This document shows, in pieces, positions 48,608-50,430 of a stretch of DNA of 64,000 bases (its first letter is position 1; every line of letters begins with the position of its first letter). The translations under genes and the position numbers were made by a program. Location of the stretch: assembly GCA_963840695.1 (NCBI GenBank), contig CAWIZW010000011.1:51238-115237 (forward strand). The letters run 5' to 3'. This DNA is from an uncultured Acidimicrobiia bacterium (GTDB lineage Bacteria; Actinomycetota; Acidimicrobiia; Acidimicrobiales; JACDCH01). The notes beneath the pieces were generated by a model. It had not been told where the DNA came from. It searched no databases and was given only the letters and a program-made list of their open reading frames with translations.

Positions 48608-48719
48608 CACGCTTCCCTTCCGACGCCTGTGAACGGCGCCACGTCGGACCCTACGCCCGCGCCGGATCGCTCGCGCCTGGAGCGCGGACCGGCCCCGGTG
48701 GTGACCGAGGCCGGGGGAG

Positions 48720-48790
48720 AGCGGGTGACGGGAATCGAACCCGCGTTCTCAGCTTGGGAAGCTGATGTTCTGCCGCTGAACTACACCCGC
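48720..48790 (-). tRNA. tRNA-Gly (anticodon CCC), CCA end not encoded
   Basis: Minus strand GCGGGTG acceptor pairing with CACCCGC, TCAGC-TTCCCAA-GCTGA anticodon arm, GGTTCGATTCC T-arm. Confidence 0.96.
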
Positions 48791-48903
48791 GGGGAGCGGA
48801 GCGTCGATGTTAGCGCCGGCGCCCGTCGGCGACCGGTGTGTCGGGGATCGGCCTCGCAGAGCCGTCGAGCTGGACACACCCGGCCGCTAGGTTCGGCCGG
48901 ACC

Positions 48904-50430
48904 ATGGCTGTCCTGTCCGACCGCACCCTCCGCGAGCAGATCGCCGCCGGGCGGATCGTGCTCGAGCCGCTCGACGAATCCTGCATCCAGCCGGCATCGA
49001 TCGACGTCCACCTCGACCGCTTCTTCCGGGTGTTTCTCAACCACACGATGGCCGTCATCGACGTGAAGCAGGACCTGTCCGGTCTCACCCAGGCCGTCGA
49101 CGTCGAGGAGGACGGCGTCTTCGTCCTGCACCCCGGCGAGTTCGTCCTCGGCTCCACGCTCGAGCTCATCGGTGTCCCCGACGACCTCGTCGCCCGCGTC
49201 GAAGGCAAGGCGCTGGCGACGGAGACCCCGATCCCCACACCCTCCGGGTGGACCACGATGGGCGAGCTCCAGCCCGGCGACTGGGTCTTCGACCACCTCG
49301 GTCTGCCGGCGCCGGTGATCGCGGCTTCGGACGTGCTCACGGACCGCCTGTGCTACGAGCTGAAGCTCTCCGACGGGACCGCGGTCGTCGCCGACGCGGA
49401 TCACCAGTGGTTCGTCCGCACCAAGCAGGATCGCGCCGGCAGGAAGCCCGGACGGATCCTGACGACGAGAGCCATCGCAGCGACCCTTCGCGTCGGTCGT
49501 GAGTGGAACCACAACATCCCCCAATGCGAGCCGCTGCGGCTTCCCAGGGTCGACCTCCCGATTGACCCGTACGTGCTCGGTGCCTGGCTCGGGGACGGGA
49601 CCTCGACATCGGCGCCGGTGGCCGCGACGGGCCGGTTCGGAGCCGATGGCTCGCTGAACAGCACCCTCCGGCGTGAGGGGCTCCTCGGTCACAAGGGAGT
49701 CCCGCCCCAGTACCAGCGCGCATCGGCCGAGCAGCGGCTGGCCTTGCTGGAGGGACTGATGGATACCGACGGCTATTGCGACAAGTGGGGCCGTTGCGAG
49801 TTCACGACGGTGAGGCGCTCGCTCGCCGACGAGGTCATGGAGCTGGTCGCTGGGCTCGGCTTCAAGCCCGTCCTGGCCGAGAAGCGAGCGATGCTCAACG
49901 GACGCGACTGCGGCCCGAAGTACGACGTGACGTTCACGCCGCACCGGCCCGTGTTCCGCTTGCGAAGGAAGCTCGCCCGCCAGAAGTCGACCGACCGTGG
50001 CTTCTTCAAGATGGGAAGGGCCGTCGTCGGTGCACGCGTCGTCAGGTCGACGCCGGTCCGTTGTATCCAGGTCGGGACGGCCGACGGGATCTTCCTCGCG
50101 ACGCGGGCCTTCGTGCCGACGCACAACAGCTCGCTCGGCCGGCTCGGCTTGCTGATCCACAGCACCGCCGGCTTCGTCGACGCCGGGTTCTCGGGTCACA
50201 TCACCCTGGAGCTCTCCAACGTCGCCAACCTGCCGATCACGCTCTACCCGGGCATGAAGATCGGGCAGATCAGCTTCCTGGAGATGACGACGCCGGCGGA
50301 GCACCCGTACGGCTCCGGCGCCCTCGGCTCGAAGTACCAGGGCCAGCGGGGCCCCACGCCCAGCCGCTACTGGGAGAACTTCACCGACCCCGCGTCGAAG
50401 GCACCGCGCTCGAGCTGGTCGCGCCGGTAG
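48904..50430 (+). CDS. dcd: dCTP deaminase interrupted by an intein (spliced product about 202 aa)
   Basis: [24 protein letters not shown]|[35 protein letters not shown]. Confidence 0.95.
49210..50127 (+). mobile_element. Class 3 intein (306 aa) with shortened LAGLIDADG endonuclease
   Basis: Starts [24 protein letters not shown]; block B DADHQW; block F VRCIQV; ends VPTHN before Ser; LGAWLGDG and LEGLMDTDG motifs. Confidence 0.93.

Follow-up and report, generated by a model that had tools for sequence, protein, structure and literature searches.

How has a 306-residue insert come to stand in the active-site loop of an enzyme of nucleotide metabolism, and is it removed again? The question is raised by dcd, the gene for dCTP deaminase (Dcd), in a 64,000-nucleotide stretch of contig CAWIZW010000011.1 (positions 51,238 to 115,237 of the forward strand; assembly GCA_963840695.1) from an uncultured Acidimicrobiia bacterium; this whole stretch is called the window below. 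We consider it highly likely that a splicing class 3 intein separates Lys102 of Dcd from the active-site Ser, that the intein spread by homing, and that the window copy is an immobile remnant.

The host enzyme was identified from its exteins. Pfam DCD matched two separate stretches of the 508-amino-acid (aa) precursor (E 9.7e-42), and TIGR02274 (dCTP_deam) scored 196.8 bits over two stretches against a cut-off of 92.8, which places the protein in that family once the insert is allowed for. A longer, GTG-start version of the same frame (48838-50430) is present in the open reading frame (ORF) listing. No intein-aware NCBIfam model matched the precursor, and dcd-plus-intein proteins are named plainly as dCTP deaminase in the databases. 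The exteins aligned without gaps with residues 2-102 and 101-187 of Mycobacterium tuberculosis Dcd (2qxx; E 1.3e-67), and this alignment put precursor Ser409 at residue 102 of the M. tuberculosis enzyme, equivalent to residue 111 of the Escherichia coli enzyme (1xs1). In M. tuberculosis numbering, Ser102, Asp119, Glu129, and Gln148 were all kept in the window exteins, as was an aromatic residue at position 117. Bifunctional dCTP deaminase:dUTPase enzymes (Dcd:Dut) are described as combining Ser102, Asp119, and Gln148 with an aromatic residue that replaces Arg126 (PMC3360063), and the window exteins showed this combination, the residue aligned with E. coli Arg126 being aromatic (precursor residues 408-494 ungapped against 101-187). 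Judged by its sequence, the host is a dCTP deaminase, probably of the bifunctional type, and most resembles the mycobacterial enzyme. It shares with M. tuberculosis Rv0321 (2qxx, 4a6a) the end-to-end extein alignment, the key residues, and the marker aromatic residue, whereas the mycobacterial gene is free of an intein and the window protein has approximately 14 extra C-terminal residues. The preliminary description of this locus had placed the insert at the catalytic serine of Dcd. The position stands, as Ser+1 aligned with E. coli Ser111, but the term is slightly loose, as Ser102 is counted among the residues without which the bifunctional enzyme cannot carry out its dUTPase reaction (PMC3360063).

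The splicing class of the insert was assessed by the criteria of Tori et al. (2010). Class 3 inteins are defined by the lack of an N-terminal nucleophile, a dispersed triplet of Trp (block B position 12, B:12), Cys (block F position 4, F:4), and Thr (block G position 5, G:5), and Ser or Thr at the +1 position, and their block F Cys is described as absolutely required (PMC2807308, PMC5222942). The window protein was compared with its 120 best matches out of 5322 in the database (121 sequences together; the relatives were 483-601 aa long and 55-88% identical). All of these 120 were dcd-plus-intein proteins, and weaker matches may have other intein hosts. Ala1, His65, Trp67, Cys285, Thr304, His305, Asn306, Ser+1, and the preceding Gly-Lys were invariant in all 121 sequences.

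Comparison with solved structures pointed to the same class. The splicing domain matched the class 3 DnaB inteins 6rix, 6riy, and 6bs8 in phmmer searches (E 3e-25, 1.7e-24, and 2.1e-23, respectively); the first 68 intein residues aligned without gaps (E about 1e-19 for that stretch), and the last 33-36 aligned across VRC(I/V)xV...PTHN. For these inteins, a need for the block F Cys has been demonstrated by experiment (PMC5222942, PMC2807308). The Trp of DADHQW (codon 49408-49410) aligned with HQW of 6rix and 6bs8, and Cys285 with the catalytic Cys124 of 6rix and Cys118 of 6bs8, within VRC[VI]E/QV. The AlphaFold (AF2) model of the intein, built from 84 input sequences, had a mean predicted local distance difference test score (pLDDT) of 93.7 and a predicted template modeling score (pTM) of 0.90, and its HINT part reached a pLDDT of approximately 95-98. 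In Foldseek, the model matched PI-SceI and related endonuclease-bearing inteins with template modeling (TM) scores of 0.71-0.77 by query, and the class 3 mini-inteins 6rix, 6riy, and 6bs8 with TM scores of 0.83-0.84 by target. By every criterion of sequence and predicted fold, the insert is a class 3 intein.

The in-frame split of dcd into ARVEGK, 306 residues, and SSLGRLGL, as first described, was borne out: the translation of 49210-50127 is free of stop codons, the extein alignments are gapless, the Ala start, the His-Asn end, and the block G Thr are as described, and the coordinates given for the Trp of block B (49408) and the Cys of block F (50062) are exact. Its assignment to class 3 is upheld by the invariance of the triplet together with Ala1 and Ser+1 and by the sequence and fold matches to DnaB inteins. 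With the DnaB inteins of Mycobacterium smegmatis (DnaBi1; 6bs8/6own), M. chimaera (DnaB1; 6rix/6riy), and M. leprae, the window intein shares Ala1, Cys48, His65, and Trp67, the VRC(I/V)xV motif with its F:4 Cys, the PTHN end, Ser or Thr at +1, and the position directly after Gly-Lys. In contrast, the mycobacterial inteins lie in DnaB, in a true Walker A P-loop, whereas the window host is a deaminase of the dUTPase fold; the crystallized mycobacterial forms are mini-inteins of 139-146 aa, whereas the window intein retains a truncated LAGLIDADG domain; and the zinc-ligand Tyr128 of the former is Phe in the latter.

Its homologues suggest that this intein would splice through a branched intermediate. 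A precursor of 508 aa would be made in which the GK-SS active-site loop is split by 306 residues; it is presumably inactive, and can reasonably be expected to stay so until spliced. Cys285, aided by His65 and Trp67, would attack the Lys102-Ala1 bond to give a thioester branched at block F, and the N-extein would move from there onto the side chain of Ser+1. Cyclization of Asn306 and an O-N shift would then restore ...VEGK-SSLGR... in a Dcd of roughly 202 aa. Most likely, splicing has been retained because Dcd activity depends on excision of the intein. Splicing by another chemistry, such as a direct attack of Ser+1 on the N-terminal junction in the manner of the class 2 intein of KlbA, appears very improbable. 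The N-terminal nucleophile is absent here as it is in class 2 inteins, but the latter are described as having no Trp-Cys-Thr triplet (PMC2807308), which is invariant in the dcd inteins, and in reports on other class 3 inteins Ser+1 was unable to initiate splicing.

We then considered the endonuclease part of the intein. Pfam LAGLIDADG_3 matched intein residues 174-225 (E 1e-5), and both helices of a two-motif LAGLIDADG endonuclease were found, each ending in an acidic residue (Asp129 and Asp187). A complete beta-sheet DNA-binding saddle in both halves was not found in the window intein: the first endonuclease half of the model contained no strands between helices 120-128 and 173-187, with pLDDT below 50 at residues 138-145, and the second half kept its beta-sheet. 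The dcd inteins were 336-347 aa long in 116 of the 121 sequences (median 343) and 293-306 aa in the other five, the window copy (306) included. Its 38 missing residues adjoin the first LAGLIDADG helix and are retained in the nearest relative, P0003, whose identity to the window copy is 95% within the intein and 88% for the complete protein. Sequence and model suggest that endonuclease activity has been lost in the window copy, and the loss of 38 residues from the LAGLIDADG domain therefore makes this copy probably immobile. We regard it as most likely an immobile, still-splicing remnant, and in-frame decay of the endonuclease would be the expected late stage of a homing cycle. The truncation had not been part of the preliminary description.

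The decay of the endonuclease part could also be taken as a sign that the insert no longer splices, and that dcd is a pseudogene or contains a fixed non-splicing domain. A stop codon or frameshift lies inside the dcd intein of another locus (L039), and most genomes of the same family use a long Dcd with two domains, so that the short dcd might be dispensable. We nevertheless consider loss of splicing highly unlikely: the 508-codon frame is open, none of the splicing or extein-junction residues varies among the 121 sequences, whose overall identity is 55-88%, and the deletion is in frame and limited to the endonuclease, next to a confidently modeled HINT part. The features that underlie the preferred reading, a splicing intein with a degraded endonuclease, are listed in Table 1. 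Directly upstream of dcd and divergently transcribed lies a gene for tRNA-Gly(CCC) (48719-48790, minus strand).

Table 1. Coordinates of the dcd precursor gene and of its extein and intein features in the window. Counts refer to the 121 dcd-intein sequences.
Feature	Coordinates	Strand	Basis or remarks
dcd precursor ORF	48904..50430	+	508 aa and stop; ATG at 48904, TAG at 50428-50430; dCTP deaminase split by intein
N-extein, 102 aa, ending ...ARVEGK	48904..49209	+	Aligned to 2qxx 2-101; Gly-Lys at -2/-1 in 121/121
Class 3 intein, 306 aa, ALATETP...FVPTHN	49210..50127	+	Translation without stop, alignments, model
Ala1, block A, non-nucleophilic first residue	49210..49212	+	Ala in 121/121
Cys48, homologous to M. 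smegmatis DnaBi1 Cys48	49351..49353	+	Ungapped alignment of residues 1-68 to 6bs8; Cys in 120/121
Block B His65-Gln66-Trp67 (B:10 to B:12)	49402..49410	+	His in 121/121, Trp in 121/121
First LAGLIDADG motif, acidic Asp129	49570..49602	+	Asp in 115/121, Gly130 in 121/121; helix 120-128 in model
Deletion junction, 38 aa in frame, after intein residue 137	49618..49623	+	Length comparison, model; beta-sheet of the first endonuclease half removed
Second LAGLIDADG motif, acidic Asp187	49741..49776	+	Asp187 in 120/121, Gly188 in 121/121; helix 173-187 in model
Cys285, block F position 4 (VRCIQV), predicted initiating nucleophile	50062..50064	+	Cys in 121/121
Block G Thr304-His305-Asn306	50119..50127	+	Each in 121/121
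+1 Ser (precursor Ser409)	50128..50130	+	C-extein nucleophile and Dcd active-site Ser; Ser in 121/121
C-extein, 100 aa and stop codon, beginning SSLGRLGL	50128..50430	+	Aligned to 2qxx 102-187

To describe how widely the intein occurs, we searched genome records with one genome per species, in which 163 stretches encoded a relative of it. Among the best 80 of these loci, 33 were in dcd, and 40 of the other 47 followed Gly-Lys, mostly in DnaB-type P-loops (7 of the 80 were mis-delimited, with a match that did not start at residue 1). The dcd-intein carriers comprised Acidimicrobiales, Microthrixaceae, Solirubrobacterales (with the isolate Paraconexibacter sp. AEG42_29), Gaiellaceae, Gaiellales, Micromonospora marina DSM 45555, a Pseudonocardia metagenome-assembled genome (MAG), and three Armatimonadota (two Armatimonadales and one Capsulimonadaceae). 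Within the window's own order, the dcd intein was found in 3 of 41 genomes (the window genome, one of the same family, and one of the same order), and an uninterrupted short dcd was found in 16 same-order genomes. A metagenome scan yielded 11 empty-site dcd alleles of 185-190 aa, whose N-exteins were 56-73% and C-exteins 83-93% identical to those of the window; their DNA differed from the window flanks at 8-17 of 60 positions. No second copy of the intein was found in the window's 52%-complete genome assembly. The intein in dcd is thus common in databases and among soil actinobacteria, and its distribution across Actinomycetota and Armatimonadota is wide but patchy, which the preliminary description had not noted. 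The dcd inteins probably form one allelic family, scattered among relatives and present in two phyla.

Two further observations concern individual alleles and the host gene. At locus L039 (2001-3024; an uncultured Solirubrobacterales MAG), the dcd-intein match spans 1024 bases, which is not a multiple of three, and contains a stop codon; either the allele is frameshifted and decaying, or the assembly is in error there. A long Dcd, with two tandem DCD domains in a frame of approximately 390-480 aa, is encoded in 12 of the 17 other genomes of the same family (G001, which is of the same genus, G003, G004, G007-G014, and G017), and no short dcd was found in these 12. The short form occurs within the family in the window genome and G006 only, intein-bearing in both, and may have been acquired or retained separately.

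Phylogenetic analysis addressed how often dcd was colonized. FastTree recovered a clade of 48 actinobacterial dcd inteins with support 100 and set the Armatimonadota trio apart (20 of the 80 genome loci were omitted, being near-duplicate DnaB inteins, mis-delimited, or L039 with its internal stop). The three Armatimonadota inteins (L051, L053, and L061) are 365 aa long, about 20 aa above the actinobacterial ones, and form a clade of their own (support 100). In an approximately unbiased (AU) test on 55 rows, a tree that held the 18 dcd inteins of the sample together as one clade was not rejected (p-AU 0.745), and this constrained tree stood 12.2 log-likelihood units above the free search. The simplest reading is one colonization of dcd followed by homing, including homing across phyla (Actinomycetota and Armatimonadota). 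Several independent invasions of dcd were considered and dropped, as P0196 was pulled into the clade by IQ-TREE and a single clade remained acceptable in the AU test. We do not name a donor protein, because the sister group of the dcd inteins changed between trees, from terminase inteins (FastTree, support 42) to a mixed group when more rows were included. An argument from foreign composition was likewise abandoned: third-codon-position GC content (GC3) was 0.88 in the intein and 0.93-0.98 in the exteins, a difference too small to argue from.

Several points weigh against a splicing, once mobile intein of single origin in dcd. Splicing of the window intein is itself something that we infer. 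The selective pressure to retain splicing may be less strong than supposed, although residues unchanged in all 121 sequences argue that there is such pressure; the genome assembly is 52% complete, so that a second, uninterrupted dcd is possible. As regards the endonuclease, both LAGLIDADG acidic residues are still present in the window copy. As regards the origin, neither free tree placed the Armatimonadota trio within the main dcd clade, and P0196 fell outside that clade in two FastTree runs and inside it in the IQ-TREE tree. The AU test is compatible with a single origin, and the deep branches of the intein tree shifted, the sister of the dcd inteins being terminase inteins (with the low support given above) or a large mixed group, depending on the tree.

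To understand why dcd was accessible, we examined the junctions of related inteins. With the intein alone as the query, a search of 1.84 billion cluster representatives gave 17132 matches at E <= 0.001, of which 3833 were at E <= 1e-30. In the best 150 of the 17132, we delimited 162 inteins (3 of the 150 proteins yielded no full N-terminal piece, and the inteins counted were limited to 250-480 aa). Insertion was after Gly-Lys in 113 and after Lys in 131, Ser or Thr stood at +1 in 160, and the inteins themselves began with Ala in 137 cases and ended in PTHN in 127. A Pfam scan of ten hosts gave five terminase large subunits, one FtsK, one Toprim-containing protein, one dcd, and two with endonuclease families only. 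The window intein thus belongs to a very large class 3 family, whose members are nearly always found between Lys and Ser or Thr of a Walker A P-loop, in phage terminases, DnaB, and other NTPases. Insertion between Lys and Thr of Walker A is called the 'classic' P-loop intein insertion in a survey of mycobacteriophages (PMC5050341), and the founding class 3 paper places most class 3 inteins in ATPase P-loops (PMC2807308). At the level of sequence, the dcd site ...EGK/SSLGR... (the slash marks the junction) is a reproduction of the P-loop junction, Lys followed by Ser or Thr, in a non-P-loop enzyme. This resemblance of GK/SS to the P-loop junction is the most likely reason why dcd was colonized; it had gone unmentioned in the preliminary description. 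Similar nucleotide-binding sites have been proposed to allow extein switching among class 3 phage inteins (bioRxiv 10.1101/2025.01.02.630785), and the dcd case fits that idea.

Viral relatives were also searched. A relative was present in 721 phage records, covering at least 80% of the query in 505; the best 30 of the 721 were annotated as terminase, exonuclease, or DnaB-like helicase, with none reaching 60% identity and none in a dcd host. No dcd host was found among the best 80 of 555 viral-contig relatives either, though THNSSLGR was one of the two patterns scanned for; a result for these 80 does not prove absence. The class 3 inteins of actinobacteriophage TerL (TerL1-a) and Cas4 covered residues 1-306 at 36-39% identity, endonuclease included, and follow the same rule of Lys before and Ser or Thr after the junction; they differ in having viral hosts with ATPase or nuclease exteins.

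Other inteins were observed in the course of these searches. In same-family genomes, class 3 inteins occupy the Walker A loop of DnaB (SMGK/ALSLDTP...IPTHN/TAFALG), at L008 (1445-3787, plus strand; G008) and L009 (1239-3839, minus strand; G004); one is 263 aa long, with most of the endonuclease gone, and the other 382 aa. On contig C346 of G022, a 775-aa frame that runs off the end of the contig (L010, 635-2959, plus strand) contains a class 3-like intein (Ala1, AEHLW, VCIQV, VTHN/T), which sits after ...AFMRGR and not after Gly-Lys; its flanks look PhoH-like by eye, which we take as a presumption. Two or three class 3 inteins per protein occur in many of the top representatives (P0124-P0153 and others), with 4-7 matched stretches in 1100-2250 aa; some terminase large subunits, for example, have one after RGxGK and another between ...GE or ...GD and SG. 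The RecA of the window genome (a 795-aa ORF; L012, 142-2529, minus strand, G000 contig C17, outside the window) contains a separate class 1 intein (...VKNK/CFAAGT...IVASN/CSPPF...) with a LAGLIDADG-like motif, LLGYLIGDGY, and a Pfam Intein_splicing match (E 2.5e-5) below the family cut-off.

The host enzyme itself has a precedent. Contrary to the preliminary description, in which dCTP deaminase was not known as an intein host, gp069 of cyanophage vB_AphaS-CL131 contains one whose self-splicing was shown in E. coli, and bacterial dCTP deaminase inteins are cited there from one proteobacterium and one Chloroflexi (PMC6293099). The CL131 intein interrupts the same active-site loop of the same enzyme. 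Unlike the window intein, it belongs to class 1 (Cys1, Asn at the C terminus, Cys+1), is 351 aa long, and contains an HNH endonuclease; its junctions, ...GKSTYAR/CFTG... and ...FVKN/CGII..., lie five residues downstream of the window site. Because class, endonuclease, and insertion point all differ, we regard it as an independent invasion of the same loop. The suggestion of a new insertion site therefore survives in part: the host enzyme was already published, and the site and class differ from those of CL131 and may be unreported. Full-text searches brought up no publication that describes a class 3 intein in dcd, although supplementary host lists may already include one, the candidates being the Trp-Cys-Thr inteins in Tori 2010 and the 'deaminase' category in a figure legend of Novikova 2016. 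The novelty is modest: the splicing class and the host enzyme were both known, and what is new is their pairing and the site.

Finally, we considered whether the intein, which lies in an active-site loop, goes beyond being a tolerated parasite and makes Dcd maturation reversibly dependent on redox state or zinc, by a Cys48-Cys285 disulfide or a metal at Cys285. If so, oxidative or metal stress would throttle the dCTP-to-dUMP/dTTP supply. Its closest solved relative, DnaBi1 of M. smegmatis, is blocked reversibly by H2O2, which induces a Cys48-Cys118 disulfide (PMC6195587), and by zinc, which is bound by Cys118, the Val119 backbone, and the Tyr128 hydroxyl (PMC7360933). Cys48 occupies the same position in the dcd inteins, in the gapless stretch of residues 1-68, and is kept in 120 of 121. 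However, Cys48 is needed for splicing as such in DnaBi1 (PMC6195587), and its conservation thus requires no regulatory explanation. The position of the zinc ligand Tyr128 is Phe in 101 of 121 dcd inteins, including the window copy. In addition, relatives thrive with an uninterrupted dcd, the patchy, homing-like distribution fits a selfish element, the window genome has a separate Dut-like match, and the bifunctional enzyme of M. tuberculosis is reported to be dispensable. By analogy, the redox trap appears chemically plausible and the zinc site somewhat less so, but we think it unlikely that either serves as a switch. Slightly more doubtful still is the full sequence of events in which a class 3 lineage left P-loops, colonized dcd through GK/SS, spread, and now forms a redox or metal gate on dCTP-to-dUMP flux through Cys48 and Cys285.

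In the literature consulted, descriptions of class 3 inteins come almost entirely from helicases, terminases, and a small number of other phage proteins. The dcd inteins are an abundant natural class 3 case in a housekeeping enzyme of nucleotide metabolism with a non-P-loop fold, in which the junction of Gly-Lys and Ser is kept. Harmless cultured carriers exist (M. marina DSM 45555 and Paraconexibacter sp.), and if Cys48-Cys285 behaves as in the mycobacterial DnaB intein, dcd would provide a second, independent system for conditional protein splicing. The full-length, endonuclease-deleted, and empty alleles form a natural series for the homing cycle at one site, and the case gives concrete support to the view that the sites open to class 3 inteins are set by short junction motifs and not by the fold of the host.

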